A stretch of DNA of 64,000 nucleotides. It comes from an uncultured Planctomycetaceae bacterium (GTDB taxonomy: Bacteria > Planctomycetota > Planctomycetia > Planctomycetales > Planctomycetaceae). A program made the position numbers and the translations under genes. Under the pieces are notes generated by a model that ran no database searches, was not told where the DNA came from, and was given only the letters and a program-made list of their open reading frames with translations. The DNA lies in NCBI GenBank assembly GCA_963813715.1, contig CAWFAK010000012.1, positions 224,001-288,000 of the forward strand, given 5' to 3'. This document shows positions 4,197 to 46,708 of this stretch, piece after piece (position 1 is the first letter of the stretch; each line of letters opens with the position of its first letter).

Positions 4197-4713
4197 GTGC
4201 GGCGGGCGTCGCGGTGCTCACCATTTCGTCCGGGTCCAATCGTCACTGTCGGTTGACTTTCACACCGCGCACGCCCAAACTGGGGCACGCTTGCTGAGGA
4301 CCAGCAAGGCCGTCTGCATGGACCGCCTGCTCTTCGCCTTGGTCTTTTGTCGTGGACTTGTCCACTCTCGAACCCTGCCCCGACGGCATGTCGCGCGGGC
4401 GGGCTGAACAACTCGTGACTTCGTAAGCCCCTTGCCTCCAATGCGCGGCAAAGGCTTTGTGCGATCGACGCGCGGAAGGTAATCCGCGCTTGTCATGCGG
4501 TCACGGTGGATCGAGACGTGGGAACTCTGCGCGATCGACGGGCCAACGCGTCCCATGACTTCGACCGATCGAACCGGTAGAGAAACGGATTTTGCAGGCT
4601 CGAATTAGCCTCTTAATTCCGGACCCCGGTTCCGATCGTTCTTCGCTTCACCGCATCCAACAGGTCATGGACTGCTTTCGATCGTCGATTCCCTGCGCCC
4701 GTCTCCTGCGGGC

Positions 4714-39746: not shown

Positions 39747-41099
39747 ATGTCGAAGCCGTCCGACATCCAGATCGTTGAAGCCGTTCTGAGCTTTGAATCG
39801 GTCCCCTATCGCACTCCGTTGAAGTTTGGCGGGCGGACCGTTGACCACGCGATTCTGGTCAACGTCGAAGTCTCCGCGGAAAGTCGCCGCGGCCACGGCG
39901 CCTCCGGTTTCGGCACCATGCCCCTGGGCAGCGCGTGGGCCTGGCCCAGCACCTCCCTCTCGGTCGAGCAGACCGAAGACGCGATGCAGAAGTTCGCGGA
40001 GGACGTGATCGAGCTGGCCAACGGCTATCCCGACTTCGGCCACCCGATCGAAATCGCCTATTCGCTCTCCGCCGAATACCCGCACGTGGCCAAAACGCTG
40101 GCGCAACGGCTCAAGCTGTCCGAAGAGATGCCGCTGTTGGCTCAACTCGTCGCCGCGAGCGCGTTCGACGCCGCCCTGCACGACGCCTTCGGCCGCGCCA
40201 ACGACATGAACTCGTACGACGGACTGTCGTCGAAGCACATGAACGACGATCTGTCGATCTACCTCGACGACCAGTTCAAGGGCGAGTATCTCGACAAGTA
40301 CACGCTGCGACAGCCGAAGCCGACCTTGCCGCTCTACCACCTGGTCGGGGCGCTCGATCCGCTCACCGCGGCCGAGGTGAAGCAGCCGCTCAAGGACGGA
40401 CTGCCCGAATCGTTAAGCGATTGGATCAAGGCCGACGGGCTGACGCATCTGAAGATCAAGCTGGCCGGCGACGATTTGAACTGGGACGTCGAGCGGACCC
40501 TGGCCGTCGATCGCGTCGCCACGGAGGCGGCCTCTGCCAAGGGCAAGTCGGCGCTCTCGTATTCGTGCGACTTCAACGAGAAGTGCCCGAACGCGGCCTA
40601 CGTGGTCGATTTCCTCAACCGCATCAAAAAGCAGAATGCGGCCGCCTTCGATCGCATCCAGTACCTCGAACAGCCGACGCACCGCAACCTGCGCGAGCAC
40701 CCGAACGATAAAATGCACGACGCGGCGAAGCTCAAGCCCGTCGTGATCGACGAATCGCTGGTCGACTACGAATCGCTGACATTGGCCCGCGACATGGGCT
40801 ATAGCGGCGTGGCCCTCAAAACGTGCAAGGGGCAGACCGATTCGTTGCTGCTGGCCGCCGCCGCGCAGAAGTTCGGCATGTTCGTCTGCGTGCAGGACCT
40901 CACCTGCCCAGGCGCGTCGTTCCTGCAGTCAGCCTCGCTCGCGGCCCGCATCCCCACGGTGGCCGCCGTCGAAGGCAACAGCCGGCAGTACTGCCCGCAA
41001 GCCAACAAGCTGTGGGCCAAAAAGTATCCCGGCCTCTTCAAAGTCACCGACGGCCAGGTGACCACCGGCGCGCTCAACAAGATCGGCCTGGGATTCTGA
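39747..41099 (+). CDS. Mandelate racemase/muconate lactonizing enzyme (enolase superfamily) protein
   Basis: 'RTPLKFGG', 'HLKIKL.G', 'DFNE', 'YLEQP', 'IDES', 'ALK.CKG'. Confidence 0.88.
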   Translation: MSKPSDIQIVEAVLSFESVPYRTPLKFGGRTVDHAILVNVEVSAESRRGHGASGFGTMPLGSAWAWPSTSLSVEQTEDAMQKFAEDVIELANGYPDFGHPIEIAYSLSAEYPHVAKTLAQRLKLSEEMPLLAQLVAASAFDAALHDAFGRANDMNSYDGLSSKHMNDDLSIYLDDQFKGEYLDKYTLRQPKPTLPLYHLVGALDPLTAAEVKQPLKDGLPESLSDWIKADGLTHLKIKLAGDDLNWDVERTLAVDRVATEAASAKGKSALSYSCDFNEKCPNAAYVVDFLNRIKKQNAAAFDRIQYLEQPTHRNLREHPNDKMHDAAKLKPVVIDESLVDYESLTLARDMGYSGVALKTCKGQTDSLLLAAAAQKFGMFVCVQDLTCPGASFLQSASLAARIPTVAAVEGNSRQYCPQANKLWAKKYPGLFKVTDGQVTTGALNKIGLGF

Positions 41100-41116
41100 G
41101 GTCTCTCGTCAGCTCG

Positions 41117-41199
41117 GGGTGGCACTGGCGGCTTGCCGCCAGTGCGCTTTCTCGAAAACCGCGAAGACAACACTGGCGGACAAGCCGCCAGTGCCACCC
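41117..41199. repeat. REP doublet GGGTGGCACTGGCGG...CCGCCAGTGCCACCC
   Basis: Two hairpins in inverted orientation between convergent genes; another copy at 45451-45485. Confidence 0.85.
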
Positions 41200-41251
41200 A
41201 TCGATTTGACCGGCCGATTCCACCCACCGCAATTGACGCGGCAGCTTGGCT

Positions 41252-41962
41252 CTACCAGGGTCCGCGCGTTTGCAGCGACTGGATGTTCGAGAACGCCAGC
41301 AGCGCGAACAAGAGCGCCGGATACATCCCGTACTGTTCGCGGTGCTGCCAGCCGTAAAAAGCCACACCGCCGGCGACAATCACACTCAGCATGGCGGCCA
41401 AGCGTGCACCGTCCCAAGGTCGAAAGCGTCTGAAGAGCGCTTCCGAGATGCGCCCGCCGTCAAGCGGCAGCACCGGCAGCAAGTTTACCAGACCCCACCA
41501 CAGGTTGATGAACTCCATGAAGTCGAAAAATGCCAGTAGCCGGATCTGCCAGAGGGGTTCGAGCGTCTGCGGCCATCCGGAGGCAATCAGGGCGGACGCG
41601 GCAACGTAGACCAACCCATATAAGAGGAATCCCGCGCCCGGCCCGGCAAACGAGATCAATACTGAGCGCCCCGTCGTGTGGCCGGACGTGGGACGGTAAA
41701 CGGCCAAGCCGCCGAAGCCATACAAGTAAACCTGGGGTGGCCAGCCGCAGGCGAGTGCCGTCAGCGCGTGACCCATCTCGTGCACGAGGATCGACACAAA
41801 CAGACAGCCGATCCAGATGAATAGCAGACTGATCCGGTCTTCGCTGTTCTCATGCCAGCCAGTGATCAGCCCGGCCAGCCAGAACCAGGGCGTCACGGCG
41901 ACGGGAATGCCGAACAGGCGAAATCGCAGGTCGTAGGGGGTCGTCCCGACCGATCCGAACAT
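41252..41962 (-). CDS. Site-2 protease (M50) family protein
   Basis: 'SILVHEMGHA', 'ISFAGP', 'NLLPVLPLDGG'. Confidence 0.95.
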   Translation of the reverse strand: MFGSVGTTPYDLRFRLFGIPVAVTPWFWLAGLITGWHENSEDRISLLFIWIGCLFVSILVHEMGHALTALACGWPPQVYLYGFGGLAVYRPTSGHTTGRSVLISFAGPGAGFLLYGLVYVAASALIASGWPQTLEPLWQIRLLAFFDFMEFINLWWGLVNLLPVLPLDGGRISEALFRRFRPWDGARLAAMLSVIVAGGVAFYGWQHREQYGMYPALLFALLAFSNIQSLQTRGPW

Positions 41963-42034
41963 GTCGCGTCAACTTCCTGCTCTGACCGCCTCAATTGGTC
42001 GCGTTTGCCGTGCGGGTCGGCCGGCGTTCGGGGA

Positions 42035-42062
42035 TTGACCCATTCGCCCGACCGACTAGGAT
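42035..42062 (+). promoter_or_regulatory. sigma70-like promoter for putative retron transcript
   Basis: TTGACC (42035-42040)-N16-TAGGAT (42057-42062), 8 nt before the 5' arm of the ncRNA stem. Confidence 0.6.
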
Positions 42063-42070
42063 ATGCACAA

Positions 42071-42247
42071 CGTGGCCGGCCGGTCGCACAAGCTCGGTTC
42101 GCTTCGCCTTAACCGGCGTTGCGAACGCTGCGGGGTTACCCCGTGGTCGCAACATTGTATCCATTTCGTGGCGTGAATGACCTCCTCGGCAGACCATACC
42201 GAGTAGGACATTCGGCACAGGACCCGTTGTGCAGCCCGCCGGCCATG
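42071..42247 (+). ncRNA. Putative retron msr-msd RNA
   Basis: Terminal inverted repeat CGTGGCCGGCCGGTCGCACAA (42071-42091) / TTGTGCAGCCCGCCGGCCATG (42227-42247), 17 Watson-Crick + 2 G-U of 21; G42092 in AGC context right after the 5' arm; hairpins 42095-42115 and 42118-42153; msd-like stem-loop about 42175-42213; ends 19 nt before the RT start. Confidence 0.72.
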
Positions 42248-42266
42248 CTCTTTGGATCCCCCCCGC

Positions 42267-43526
42267 ATGGGGCTCTTCGATTTCTTCTGGCGGCTGTTTT
42301 CCCCGCGTCCCTCTCGACCTGAGCCGCGTGCCCCCCGCGCGGCAAGCGCCGCCGCAAGCCCTGGCTGGTCCCGCTGCGTCGACAAGTCGGCAGCACGACC
42401 TGGGAACTCAATAGCACCGTTCGCACCGCCACGCCGCCCTATGCCTTCGCACGGCTCGGAGTCGGCACCGATCGTTACCTCGACCTGTCGCAGGACGGCA
42501 GCGACGAGCGTCTGGCTCGCCACGCGTTCCCCGTCTTTCGCACGCCCGAGCAATTGGCCGCGTGGCTCGAGCTGCCGATGGGCCGCCTCGCCTGGCTCGT
42601 GCACCGCTATGCGGAAGACTCGCGTCCGCAGAACGAGCGCGACGCGCACTACCACTATCGCTGGATCAGCAAGCGGCGCGGCGGCCGACGCCTGATCGAA
42701 TCGCCCAAGCTCACGCTGAAGACCGCCCAAAAGCGGATCCTCCGCGAGATTCTCAACAAGGTGCCCCCGCACGACGACGGCCCACGGCTTCGCGGCCGGC
42801 CGCTCGATCCTCACCAACGCGCAGCCCCACGTGAAGCAGGCCGTGCTGGTAAAGTTCGACCTGGAAAACTTTTACCCCAGCGTCACCCTCTCCCGCGTGA
42901 CGGCCATCTTTCGCAGCCTGGGCTACAGTCGTGAAGCGTCCATTTGGCTGGCGCGGCTCACGACGTCGGCCCTGCCGGCCAACATGCCCTTCGTGAAGCA
43001 AGAACCTTCGGCCGTGCTGCCCTACCTCAAACGACATCTGCCGCAAGGCGCGCCGACTTCGCCGGCGCTCGCGAACCTGTCGGCCTATTCGCTCGACGTG
43101 CGACTCTCCGGCCTGGCCCGCTCGTTCGGCGCGACCTATACCCGCTATGCCGACGATCTCACTTTTTCCGGACCGCCGCGGTTCGGCACGTCGCTCCGCG
43201 ATTTCATCCCGCTTGTGTCGCAAATCGTGCGGCAGGAGCGGTTCCGTCTGAACGGAGCCAAGCGGAAGGTGCTCCGCTCGAGCGGCCGGCTGGTCGTCAC
43301 GGGGGTCGTGGTCAACGAAAAGCTCAACGTCTCGCGTCGCGAGTTCGACCGGCTGAAGGCCGTGCTGACCAACTGCCTCCGCCAAGGCCCCTCGACGCAG
43401 AACAAAGCCGGCCATCCGCACTTTGCCGCCCATCTACGCGGACGCGTCGCCCAGATGACCCAGCTCAATTCGGCCCGCGGTGCCCGACTCCTGGCGATTT
43501 ACAATCAAATCGATTGGAATCGTTAG
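42267..43526 (+). CDS. Retron-type reverse transcriptase with N-terminal extension; apparent frameshifts near 42340 and 42778
   Basis: 'HY....I.KR.GG.R.IESPK..LK..Q..IL..IL', 'AHGF..GRSI.TNAQPH' (region X NAxxH), 'KFDLENFYPSV', 'LPQGAPTSP.LAN', 'YTRYADDLTFSG', 'VTGVVVN' (region Y VTG). Confidence 0.92.
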
Positions 43527-43544
43527 AAGCTAGGAACGCTTCGC

Positions 43545-44261
43545 ATGCTCCGCGAATTGCTGCTGATCTACATCACTCGTCCGATGGCGCGGCTGATCAT
43601 CCGCATGGGGGCCCTCCCCGCGCTGCGATTCTGCTTTCACCACGTGCGGGCGCTGGAACGACTCAACGACGAGTTGGAGAAGGATCTGGCCGAATGGATC
43701 CGCGGCTCGCTGTTGTTGCTCTTGATCACCGCCAACATGGAAGTGCTGCTCTGGCACAAGCTGATTCCTTACCCCGATTTGCTCGACGCCCACAAATGGT
43801 TCGGCGTCGGCCTGCGGATCATGCTGGCGATCGCCGTCATTCAAATGATGCCCGACCAGGAGCTGTTCACGGTCATTCACCCCGGCCCGCGAATCCCAAA
43901 GTTTCCCCCCTGCACCTCGCTGGCGGAAAAATTGCGGCTGTGCGCGAAGCCGGTGGGTCTCGGCATGTTCTGGCAGCACCTCAGCCGCTCTTCGCCCGTG
44001 TTCGCGATCCTGGCCGTGATCTTCACCGGCTGGATCGGCTGGTTCTGTTATGGCATGGCCTCCCTGCAATACTTGTTCATTGGCCTGGTCACGTCGCGCG
44101 ACCGGGCGATCGATGTGCTCTTGGTCTTCGACGAACAAATGGCCGCCCGCCGACACGAGCTCGTGCGGCAAGTGACCGTGCTCACGGAGTTCACCCGGAA
44201 CGAAGCCGCCTTCGATCAGTCGGAATTGCAGGTCCACAACGACTCGCACTGCGGCGATTAA
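43545..44261 (+). CDS. Uncharacterised multi-pass membrane protein (candidate retron partner)
   Basis: 238 aa, 3-4 hydrophobic segments, AGGA RBS, starts 18 bp after the RT stop. Confidence 0.8.
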   Translation: MLRELLLIYITRPMARLIIRMGALPALRFCFHHVRALERLNDELEKDLAEWIRGSLLLLLITANMEVLLWHKLIPYPDLLDAHKWFGVGLRIMLAIAVIQMMPDQELFTVIHPGPRIPKFPPCTSLAEKLRLCAKPVGLGMFWQHLSRSSPVFAILAVIFTGWIGWFCYGMASLQYLFIGLVTSRDRAIDVLLVFDEQMAARRHELVRQVTVLTEFTRNEAAFDQSELQVHNDSHCGD

Positions 44262-44326
44262 TCTTCACGCGGGCCACCTGCGTAAGCTGGCGGGTGCTTT
44301 CAGAAAGCAGAAAGGTTGTCGAGCGC

Positions 44327-44932
44327 ATGGAAATCGAAGTAGCGGGCTCGCAGCCGGTCGACATCTACCGTTTGCTGATTTCCTGCGTCACGCCACGGCC
44401 CATCGCCTGGGTGACCAGCATCGACCGGGAAGGGCGGGTGAATCTGGCGCCGTTCAGCTTCTTCAACGCGTTCGGCGCGGACCCGCCGGTGGTCGTCTTC
44501 GCTCCGAACCGACGGAGCGACGGCTCGAAAAAGGACACGCTGGCCAACGTCGAAGCGACCGGCGATTTCGTGGTCAATGCGGCCGTCGCCGAGCTGGCGG
44601 AGGAGGTCAATCTGTCGTCCAAGGACTTGCCGCACGGCGAGAGCGAAGTCGAGCTGACCGGCCTGTCGGTGACGCCGTCCCGCAAGGTGAAATCCCCGCG
44701 GCTCGCAGAATCACCTTTGCACATGGAGTGCGTGCTGCGGCAGGTGATCCCGATCGGCGACCGCCAGTTGTCGGCCAACCTGGTGATCGGCGAGATCGTG
44801 CTCTTTCACGTCGACGACCGCCTGCTCGACGCCAACGGCCGCATCGACCCGCGCAAGATCAAAACGTTCGCCCGCCTCGGCGGCAACTACTACTGCCACA
44901 CAAGCGATCTGTTCGAGATGAAACGGCCTTGA
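44327..44932 (+). CDS. Flavin reductase family (FMN-binding split barrel) protein
   Basis: 'Y.LL...V.PRPIAWVTS....G.VNLAPFSFFN', 'KDTL.NV..TG.FVVN', 'RLGG..Y'. Confidence 0.93.
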   Translation: MEIEVAGSQPVDIYRLLISCVTPRPIAWVTSIDREGRVNLAPFSFFNAFGADPPVVVFAPNRRSDGSKKDTLANVEATGDFVVNAAVAELAEEVNLSSKDLPHGESEVELTGLSVTPSRKVKSPRLAESPLHMECVLRQVIPIGDRQLSANLVIGEIVLFHVDDRLLDANGRIDPRKIKTFARLGGNYYCHTSDLFEMKRP

Positions 44933-44965
44933 CTGCAACTGGCCGTTCGCTCGCAGGCCCGCGGG

Positions 44966-45418
44966 TCATGACAGCCTGAGTTGCATCGTCTCGTTTTTGT
45001 GCGACGAGAATCCCAATCGCTCGTAGAGCTGTCTGGCTCGGGCGTTCCTGGGCGTCACCTCGAGTCGCACGGCGACGGCTTCGTTCCATTCGTTGTCGAT
45101 CAAGTGCCGGACAAAATCGGCGCCGATTCCTTGCCCGCGGCAGGGCGGAGCGACGTACAACTCATCGATGATGAGCACGTTGCCGCCGCACTCGTTGCTC
45201 CAGAAGTTGATGAGGACCGCGTAGCCGACGATCTGGCCATCCCGGTCGATTACTAAGATCGCACCCTTCTCGGGGTGTGCTGCGAGTTCATGCAGAGTGC
45301 GCGAGAAGTTCTCGTCCGGCACCGGCCGCTCCGCCGGATCTTCTTCGTAGAGTTGTCGCATGAGTCCCACGAGAGCCGCGTGATCGGTGTGAGCGACATT
45401 TCGATACTGAATCGGCAT
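44966..45418 (-). CDS. GNAT family N-acetyltransferase
   Basis: 'IDELYV.P..RGQGIG', 'LEV...N.RA..LYERLGF'. Confidence 0.92.
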   Translation of the reverse strand: MPIQYRNVAHTDHAALVGLMRQLYEEDPAERPVPDENFSRTLHELAAHPEKGAILVIDRDGQIVGYAVLINFWSNECGGNVLIIDELYVAPPCRGQGIGADFVRHLIDNEWNEAVAVRLEVTPRNARARQLYERLGFSSHKNETMQLRLS

Positions 45419-45496: not shown

Positions 45497-46708
45497 CTAC
45501 GAGTTCTTCTTCGCGGGCGACTTAGCCTTGTCGCGGGCCAGCTTCAGTTTCTTCTGCGCTTGTTCATTCTGCGGATCGGCGGCCGCCCATTTCTCCAAGA
45601 GCGGCAGCGCCTTGTCGTATTCGCCTTTCTCGAAATAGGCATCGGCCAGGCCGACTGTGCCGGCGTGTACTCCGGGGATTTTCTCCACCATCTCTTTCCA
45701 GATCTTGATCGCGCCGTCGGTGTCGCCCTTGGCGGAGAGCACGCGGGCCAGGCCGTTCATCGCCCCGGCGGCGCCGGGTTCCGCGGCGATGGCTCGCTCA
45801 AAATACGGTTTGGCGCCGTCCAAGTCTCCCTCAGTCAGCAGGCACCAGCCCATGCCATTGAGAGCGTTGGCGTCTTTGGGATTCTTGGTCACCAGCGGGT
45901 TCAAGATGGCCTTCGCCTCGGCATGGCGTCCCTGGTTGATCAAGGCCCACGCGCGGCCGACCTCCGCCTGCGCGGGACTCGGCTCGATTTGCTCAAGCAG
46001 TTCCGCGGTAAGTTTCTTGGCTTGCGCCGCTTTCAGCATCTCCTGCACGGAAGGATCGGTCTCGCCTTCGGCCAGGATCTTTTTCGCGTACTTCTCGGCT
46101 TGATCGTACTTGCCGGTGAGCAGGTACAGCTTCGCCAAACCGTACCAGGCGGCCGAGGCCTGCGGCGCGGCTTTGAGCAGATATTCCTCGGCCTCGCGGT
46201 AGTTGCGTTGCGACAGCGCGATCTGCCCCAGGCCGTTCAGCGCGGCCGGATGCTTGGGCTCGAGGGCAATCACTTTCTTGAAAGCCGTTTGGGCCGCGTC
46301 CGCTTTGCCGCTGTTGAAACTGGCCCAGCCGAGGCCGTTCCACGCGGCGGCGTTCTTGGGATCGAGCTTGACCGCCGCCTCGAACTTTTCGATCGCCGGC
46401 TTGAGTTCTTGCTTTTGCCACAGCTGCCAGCCTTCGGCCGACAGTGCGGCGGCTTTCTCTTCGGAGTCGCCTGCAACGGCGGTCGAGTCGAGCCGCACCG
46501 CGACAGTCGACGAAACCACAATCGCCGCCACCACCAGGGCCAGGACGGCAAAACCGGCGCCGAGCAAAATCTTGCGACGTAAACGTCGGCGGTCTTCACT
46601 CTTGAGCGAAGAGACGAGCAGATCGTCGGCTCGCCGCACGGCATCGTCGAGACGCGCCTGTTCGAGGTTCGATTCCGAGTACGGAGGATTCGAGTTGTGT
46701 GCCGACAT
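45497..46708 (-). CDS. Membrane-anchored TPR protein
   Basis: Short cytoplasmic N-terminus, one TM, repeated 'A..LDP....A.NGLG' TPRs. Confidence 0.9.
   Translation of the reverse strand: MSAHNSNPPYSESNLEQARLDDAVRRADDLLVSSLKSEDRRRLRRKILLGAGFAVLALVVAAIVVSSTVAVRLDSTAVAGDSEEKAAALSAEGWQLWQKQELKPAIEKFEAAVKLDPKNAAAWNGLGWASFNSGKADAAQTAFKKVIALEPKHPAALNGLGQIALSQRNYREAEEYLLKAAPQASAAWYGLAKLYLLTGKYDQAEKYAKKILAEGETDPSVQEMLKAAQAKKLTAELLEQIEPSPAQAEVGRAWALINQGRHAEAKAILNPLVTKNPKDANALNGMGWCLLTEGDLDGAKPYFERAIAAEPGAAGAMNGLARVLSAKGDTDGAIKIWKEMVEKIPGVHAGTVGLADAYFEKGEYDKALPLLEKWAAADPQNEQAQKKLKLARDKAKSPAKKNS

Follow-up and report, generated by a model that had tools for sequence, protein, structure and literature searches.

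A probable stand-alone retron cassette between two older chromosomal genes in the Planctomycetaceae

Most of the retrons studied to date are patchily distributed defence modules that are mobile and linked to a toxic effector. Thirteen retron types were distinguished by Mestre et al. (2020), who described stand-alone (msr-msd)-RT cassettes (RT, reverse transcriptase) in clade 11 as well as in one branch of clade 2 (PMC7736814). Their type XIII consists of the myxobacterial retrons, which have WH/SWIM and HEAT/ARM partners and for which vertical inheritance was reported (PMC7736814). In a 2026 survey of SPIRE, clade 11 was split by its 'OutgroupA/B' RNA models; in its account the low-confidence clade11-B candidates are mostly Planctomycetota, no accessory module is listed for clade11-B, and both clade11-A and clade11-B have a low or no novelty score, with weak or inconsistent evidence (PMC13712802). 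Here we describe a retron locus in a stretch of 64,000 nucleotides from an uncultured Planctomycetaceae bacterium (GenBank GCA_963813715.1, contig CAWFAK010000012.1, positions 224,001 to 288,000), referred to as the window and numbered from its first letter.

The plus strand between 42035 and 44261 holds a promoter-like site, a GC-rich non-coding stretch, an RT gene and a 238-codon open reading frame (ORF), whose product we call MEM (Table 1). An earlier note on this DNA had proposed a retron composed of promoter, msr/msd RNA and RT, with the membrane protein as the effector of a possibly undescribed retron type. We found good reason to keep the first part. The locus is probably a stand-alone retron cassette (promoter, msr-msd RNA and RT) that sits between two older neighbours, a divergent gene for an M50-family peptidase and the MEM gene. 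Both were judged to be older flanking chromosomal genes, neither being part of the retron, and MEM is most likely not the effector.

About two thirds of the family genomes sampled carry the retron, usually at one locus, with a strongly conserved RT, a covarying RNA and no consistent partner. Stand-alone retrons are a kind already known. It is noteworthy here that the element has been passed on vertically across the family at a fixed site, that its RT carries an N-terminal motif specific to the clade, and that natural variants exist. Together with the myxobacterial retrons, this makes a clear case for asking what role a vertically inherited retron without an effector has.

To define the RNA, the regions upstream of the RT were taken from relatives and aligned (alignment A2, 18 sequences from 17 genomes). 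RNAalifold predicted 43 pairs on this alignment, and 26 of them showed compensatory changes on both sides. The region 42072–42252 of the window folded at -87.8 kcal/mol (z = -4.87), which was equalled in 0/200 shuffles. The structure that emerged lies beside the RT on the same strand, is bounded by the terminal repeats a1 and a2, and contains an internal hairpin in the position of the msd. Its length of 173 nt is close to the roughly 177 nt proposed before. A search of Rfam with 41000–45000 (E ≤ 10) gave five chance-level matches (E 0.16–4.5, far under the gathering scores) and no retron family.

The AAGC at the inner end of a1 was unchanged in 18/18 aligned sequences. The a1/a2 helix ends at A42091, leaving G42092 unpaired at its inner end. 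Canonical retrons have their branching G at this place, in an AGC context. By this analogy, G42092 would be the branching nucleotide, and the extent of the multicopy single-stranded DNA (msDNA) may be predicted likewise. The long hairpin differs in sequence among genera and has conserved flanks. Such variability within constant flanks is the pattern expected for an msd stem.

A scan of the plus strand between 41900 and 44400 found a single sigma70-like site, the one directly upstream of the RNA (shuffle mean 0.3). The pattern TTGAC...TAnnAT was found in other genera too, equally spaced from the RNA. This suggested that the RNA is transcribed from this promoter, which had been pointed out before together with the structured RNA ahead of the RT.

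These elements can be arranged into a putative course of msDNA synthesis. The promoter would drive transcription of the RNA, and the RNA ends would pair through a1 and a2, a pairing supported by covariation. The RT may then bind the conserved hairpin CUGCGGGGUUACCCCGUGG, as judged from the analogy with Ec86. With the 2'-OH of the invariant G42092 as primer, it would copy the RNA leftwards from G42226 through the long hairpin, and the predicted product would be a branched msDNA of roughly 60–80 nt. The RT-msDNA complex might act as a sensor that feeds an unlinked effector, or it might have a domesticated cellular role.

The identity of the RT was examined with several profile libraries. Pfam gave RVT_1 only (3.7e-14). 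The retron-diagnostic region X (TNAQPH, 42813–42830) and region Y (VTGVVVN, 43296–43316), which the earlier note had reported around YADD (43146–43157), were all at their places. Across 26 aligned orthologues YADD, NAxxH, VTGxxxN and the LPQGAPTSPALANL motif were invariant, and this alignment contained no extra C-terminal domain. When a profile of the 26 orthologues was compared with the PDB (E ≤ 1e-10), 14/14 matches were retron RTs, with Ec86 the best at 3.6e-44.

PADLOC was run on the two in-frame pieces of the window RT and on three intact orthologues, and all the matches listed were to retron RT models. The window pieces matched RT_other (7e-98), RT_outgroup (2e-93) and RT_XIII (1e-78). 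The 419-aa RT of a genome 97% identical to the window (G002) gave the same order, with 421, 402 and 352 bits, and the typed clades with known effectors all scored 260 bits or less. The RT_IV model was not among the 25 RT matches that PADLOC listed. With the covariation of the RNA and its wide conservation (below), these matches argue that the upstream RNA and the RT constitute a genuine retron, as had been called from the window.

We filed the RT with the stand-alone clade 11 ('outgroup') retrons because it scored best on the PADLOC 'other' and 'outgroup' models and had no consistent partner; this placement, made by profile scores and model naming, would make it a relative of the clade11-B kind. 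As clade 11 is described in the two surveys, the likeness extends to the RNA upstream of the RT, the lack of a consistent gene and the planctomycete host. On the other hand, the first 57–131 residues of the three intact orthologues scanned lie outside the PADLOC matches and carry an MGLFDF... motif. In the clade 11 descriptions of Mestre et al. and of the SPIRE paper, so far as the portions used here go, family-wide vertical inheritance, a fixed site and tandem or unlinked RNAs were not encountered.

The window retron also resembles type XIII (RT clade 10; Mx162, Mx65, Sa163, Ne144), in that RT_XIII was the third-best model and inheritance appears vertical. The RT of Mx162 is long, and the window RT is likewise long and has an N-terminal extension. 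It differs in that the RT_other and RT_outgroup models scored 50–70 bits above RT_XIII. Pfam found no SWIM or winged-helix partner of the type XIII sort among the eight genes between 37616 and 48471, the neighbourhood covered in the window. The TPR gene downstream was considered as a counterpart of the HEAT/ARM partner and rejected; its ARM_TT21-type matches were weak and lay under the TPR matches.

Type IV (Ec48/Eco6), with its two-transmembrane effector, is similar in having a membrane protein gene that adjoins the retron RT. MEM, in contrast, gave no PADLOC match, a search that covers the two-transmembrane effector if the library has a model for one. Besides the missing RT_IV match noted above, MEM lies mostly apart from the RT across the family. 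Among solved RTs, that of Ec86 (Eco1; 7v9u/7xjg) is the nearest by sequence profile, and Ec86 shares the logic of the RNA, with an a1/a2 helix, a branching G (a candidate here) and an msd hairpin. The effector linked to Ec86 is nucleoside deoxyribosyltransferase-like, and the retron is located in a prophage, whereas the window retron has no linked effector and occupies a fixed chromosomal site. A literature search found no paper linking a retron with Pirellula.

A second, paralogous retron-type RT is present in the genome of the window, outside the window itself (G000:C7:22254-22969, minus strand; L055:5129-6585 for the RT and L055:6580-6767 for the RNA). It is split over two frames and is 37–52% identical to the window RT over two matched stretches. 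PADLOC again placed RT_other and RT_outgroup best, and the RNA upstream is weakly similar to that of the window (22.8 bits with the covariance model R1, described below). RTs of this paralogous class were found in many genomes of the family; they scored 300–412 bits, matched from about profile position 90 and had no N-terminal motif.

As assembled, the RT gene is spread over three frames: it opens in frame 0 at 42267, passes into frame 2 at about 42341 and returns at about 42775 to frame 0, in which it reaches the stop. Comparison with G002, the RT of which is uninterrupted, showed one base missing after 42341 and one surplus base at 42775/6, which together put about 145 codons out of frame. 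If this deletion and insertion were real, the RT would be a pseudogene and the retron dead in its own genome. We considered this quite unlikely. The out-of-frame stretch is undecayed and still codes for conserved RT sequence in frame 2. In contigs from public soil metagenomes and metatranscriptomes, the additional C after 42341 was present in 3/3 covering runs, and the surplus base at 42775/6 was absent in 4/4.

Five single-base indels relative to G002 were counted within 41990–42780 (about 800 bases), some in short C or G runs. Three of the five fall in a non-coding stretch of about 300 bp. The assembly is in 18 contigs and 82.6% complete, which would be typical of indel-rich long-read assembly. 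Because G002 and the public contigs read through, the out-of-frame stretch is conserved in its coding, and further indels occur in non-coding DNA, the two breaks are probably assembly errors. Artificial frameshifts are likely in further genes of this assembly too.

The RT begins with a motif (MGLFDFFWRLFSP) that is specific to the clade and is followed by a variable basic/proline-rich linker. Of the 89 orthologous RT ORFs, most open with a MGLFDFLRRLFFG-like peptide (MGLFDF...). In the three intact orthologues scanned, the N-terminal 57–131 residues were outside every PADLOC profile match. The helical hydrophobic moment of the motif is 0.61, and its pattern is present once in the genome of the window. 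This suggested that the motif may form an amphipathic helix that binds the membrane or a partner.

The distribution of the RNA was determined with a covariance model (R1) built from alignment A2 and searched in 150 genomes of the family. The RNA was found in 103/150 genomes and 64/92 genera (a genus count that includes the genome of the window), nearly always at a single locus. Weaker copies lay beside related RTs in two genomes from other families.

Among the natural variants, four genomes had the RNA on a different contig than the RT (G014, G179, G129 and G110). These unlinked RNAs scored 102–112 bits and had no RT within about 3–5 kb (L129:2997-3181, L141:2997-3181, L143:5501-5686 and L132:3001-3188, respectively). 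In G014, the one checked, there was no RNA ahead of the RT on the contig that carries MEM. Because the RNA and the RT are on separate contigs in these four, they may work in trans.

In three other genomes, tandem copies of the RNA were found ahead of one RT: L045:2447-2614 and 2789-2954 (G029), L081:636-803 and 877-1043 (G101), and L120:3920-4085 and 4239-4404 (G090). Each copy scored 112–143 bits, and the long-hairpin sequences of the two copies in G029 differ. Given the separate contigs in four genomes and the tandem duplication in three, we regard the RNA as a gene in its own right. The R1 model, the tandem RNAs, the unlinked RNAs and the sites left empty by clean losses (below) offer ready comparisons.

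Inheritance was assessed from the distances between sequences. Between RT distances and MEM distances the correlation was r = 0.48, which 0/999 permutations reached. The correlation was 0.48 for adjacent RT-MEM pairs (n = 29) and 0.66 for separated pairs (n = 40). Because it was no stronger for the adjacent than for the separated pairs, the correlation reflects shared descent and not special co-evolution.

A tree of MEM was built from MEM itself (FastTree, midpoint root). On this tree, genomes without an orthologous RT formed about six groups nested among the retron-bearing ones. Parsimony counted 6 changes, whereas shuffled labels needed 20.8 on average and never fewer than 16. Judging from these patterns, the retron appears to have been inherited vertically across the family. 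They fit an M50 / RNA-RT-MEM-mutL order in the ancestor, with the cassette cleanly lost or relocated several times since.

To examine the linkage of the neighbours, about 8.7 kb around each of 100 RNA loci was taken and pooled with five earlier loci, and the neighbours at these 105 loci were scored by script. The RT adjoined the RNA at 93/105, and 84 of these, where the contig continued for 1,200 bp or more downstream, were evaluable. MEM lay no more than 700 bp downstream of the RT at 34/84, and the divergent M50 gene lay upstream of the RT at 32/84. Both were present at 20/84 loci and neither at 38/84. The adjacency of the RT to MEM is thus no better kept than its adjacency to the divergent M50 gene.

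In a wider tally made by hand, eight genomes with RT and MEM together and the RNA not on that stretch were added, and two with an evaluable RT and MEM not beside it. This gave RT-MEM adjacency in about 41/93 evaluable genomes. Of the downstream gene clusters that recurred where MEM was missing (50 loci), the largest comprised 4 loci from 2 genera. At the 84 evaluable loci no effector gene was consistently linked to the RT.

MEM loci away from the RT were also collected (67, of which 60 were newly fetched and seven earlier). In the retron-bearing genomes with MEM elsewhere, M50 was beside MEM at 0/44 and mutL followed MEM at 12/43. In genomes without an orthologous RT, M50 divergently abutted MEM at 15/22 evaluable loci, with a gap of 205–429 bp. 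This abutment is the arrangement of the window minus the RNA-RT cassette, i.e. the empty site. A search with filters off for an RNA remnant at 12 of the M50-MEM loci found none (best E = 0.097).

MEM also persisted apart from the retron in other respects. In the MEM proteins of two genomes without the orthologous RT (G019 and G036), none of the columns invariant in alignment A3 (20 sequences) is changed. Conversely, mutL directly followed the RT in three genomes, G071 (L078), G061 (L108) and G119 (L135), in which the RNA and an RT match were kept and no MEM match was found anywhere in the genome. The RTs of G071 and G119, which were aligned, keep all motifs. As for mutL itself, it was the next gene after MEM at 12/34 RT-MEM loci; apart from position, no tie between the retron and this mismatch repair gene is known.

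These counts bear on the proposal of the earlier note, a tripartite retron of a new type with MEM as its effector; where the two are separated, MEM would then have to act in trans. Several observations favour it and weigh against a stand-alone retron. MEM starts 18 bp past the RT stop on the same strand with no predicted terminator in the gap, and the two are probably co-transcribed in the genome of the window. Their adjacency, at 34/84 loci, persists in about 40% of loci over deep divergence, and operons in Planctomycetota are poorly conserved. In the four genomes with an unlinked RNA, which belong to two genera, the RT stays directly upstream of MEM.

MEM is furthermore confined to the same family as the retron clade, and the amphipathic motif at the N-terminus of the RT would suit a membrane-associated partner. 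Presence of the RNA and of MEM was mildly associated by hand tally (both 93, MEM only 31, RNA only 10, neither 16), an association that kinship and incomplete genomes alone can explain. Finally, the equation of PADLOC's RT_other and RT_outgroup with clade 11 of Mestre et al. hangs on the 'OutgroupB' model name as used in the SPIRE paper.

We nevertheless considered it unlikely that MEM is the effector. The divergent M50 gene is kept beside the RT about equally often, and M50 abuts MEM at most of the evaluable loci without an orthologous RT. The conservation of MEM in G019 and G036 is awkward for a toxin restrained by the retron. Three genomes without a MEM match retain the RNA and an RT match, and the two aligned RTs among them are motif-complete. 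Adjacent pairs showed no extra co-variation, and MEM matched no PADLOC model. MEM homologues occurred mostly without an adjacent RT (MEM in 124/150 genomes of the family; adjacency at 34/84 loci), an outcome that the earlier note had named as refuting the effector claim. The idea of a new retron type with this effector was hence not supported, and the caveat in the earlier note that MEM could be an unrelated conserved gene became the better reading, from the adjacency and empty-site counts. Gene adjacency alone, even with a gap of 18 bp, is insufficient to call a retron effector.

The M50 peptidase, alone or with MEM, might instead be the functional partner. Its gene is found upstream of the RNA, in divergent orientation, at 32/84 loci, and in two genomes (G023 and G029) it stays with the retron and MEM is elsewhere. 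On the other hand, it is transcribed divergently, is missing at 52/84 RT loci, and remains beside MEM in genomes lacking the retron (15/22 loci). M50 peptidases, moreover, are a family present across all of life. We regarded such a partnership as very improbable.

A tentative alternative, to which we gave a low probability, is a domesticated retron of the core genome of the whole family, held for long at one site without a linked effector. In this case the amphipathic helix at its N-terminus would tether the RT, perhaps to the membrane, MEM and/or M50 would act in trans, and the role would be cellular or a differently wired defence. For the stand-alone cassette preferred here, the membrane protein and the peptidase would be bystanders at an old chromosomal site.

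The MEM protein was characterized further. The earlier note had described a 238-aa ORF 18 bp past the RT stop with 3–4 hydrophobic segments. The ORF and its position were correct, and the number of segments was roughly right but generous; residues 56–74 and 149–172 alone passed a Kyte-Doolittle scan (19-residue window, threshold 1.6). The AlphaFold2 model is all-helical, with a mean predicted local distance difference test (pLDDT) score of 74.9. No match to MEM was found in Pfam, PADLOC or NCBIfam, and Foldseek with the model against the PDB gave nothing at E ≤ 0.001 (best 0.25). A prediction of the complex of RT (A5) and MEM (A4) returned 'no answer' with a score of 0.00, which speaks neither for nor against binding.

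MEM is well conserved within the family. In a sample across the phylum, it was present in 15/15 genomes of the family and in 0/285 genomes of other families. Its named relatives at 40–48% identity were Rubinisphaera and metagenome-assembled genomes of Planctomycetaceae or Planctomycetota. The ESM Atlas matches were all clusters of hypothetical proteins, belonging to Planctomycetota and Verrucomicrobiota. The look-alikes from Verrucomicrobiota were not relied on, the profile search having found none in the 285 genomes of other families.

The genes around the retron, by Pfam, include Fae, ATP-grasp, enolase-like, M50, flavin reductase, GNAT, TPR, DUF2089 and dehydrogenase genes. None of these neighbours resembles defence genes, in line with the earlier remark that the surroundings are housekeeping-like. 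The coordinates of the features are collected in Table 1.

Table 1. Features of the retron locus and its neighbours, in positions of the window
Feature	Position	Strand	Basis or remark
M50-family intramembrane metallopeptidase gene	41252-41962	-	Pfam Peptidase_M50 7.8e-17; divergent from the retron
Sigma70-like promoter: TTGACC (42035-42040), 16-nt spacer, TAGGAT (42057-42062)	42035-42062	+	Scan
Retron non-coding RNA (msr-msd), 173 nt	42073-42245	+	Alignment A2, covariation, fold, covariance model R1
a1 arm	42073-42091	+	Pairs with a2; alignment A2/RNAalifold
Invariant AAGC, candidate branching G at 42092	42090-42093	+	Alignment A2
Variable stem-loop (length differs)	42097-42126	+	Alignment A2
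Conserved, near-invariant hairpin CUGCGGGGUUACCCCGUGG	42128-42146	+	Alignment A2
Long variable hairpin (putative msd stem)	42174-42214	+	Alignment A2
a2 arm	42227-42245	+	Pairs with a1
Retron reverse transcriptase gene	42267-43526	+	ATG 42267, TAG 43524-43526
Clade-specific N-terminal RT motif MGLFDFFWRLFSP	42267-42305	+	Variable basic/proline-rich linker after it
MEM, 238-aa helical, probably membrane, protein	43545-44261	+	Start 18 bp past the RT stop
Flavin reductase gene	44327-44929		Pfam Flavin_Reduct 1.7e-24
TPR gene	45497-46708		Weak ARM_TT21-type matches beneath TPR matches (Pfam)

Contigs of two RNA-library runs (X10 and X12) spanned the RNA, RT and MEM regions; nothing was concluded from them on transcription, ends or strand.

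In some relatives, contigs from short reads break inside the RNA, as at the start of L025 (G006:C160) and in L112 (G108:C609:17-212). In G009, the end of C1 and the start of C158 (L156 and L157) overlap within the RNA. Strong GC hairpins, or reads derived from msDNA, could have upset the assembly at these places.

Six public homologues of MEM (235–271 aa; P0059, P0069, P0070, P0083, P0109 and P0116) are labelled 'DNA topoisomerase I'. Since Pfam, NCBIfam and the predicted fold give this name no support, it looks like a propagated misannotation.

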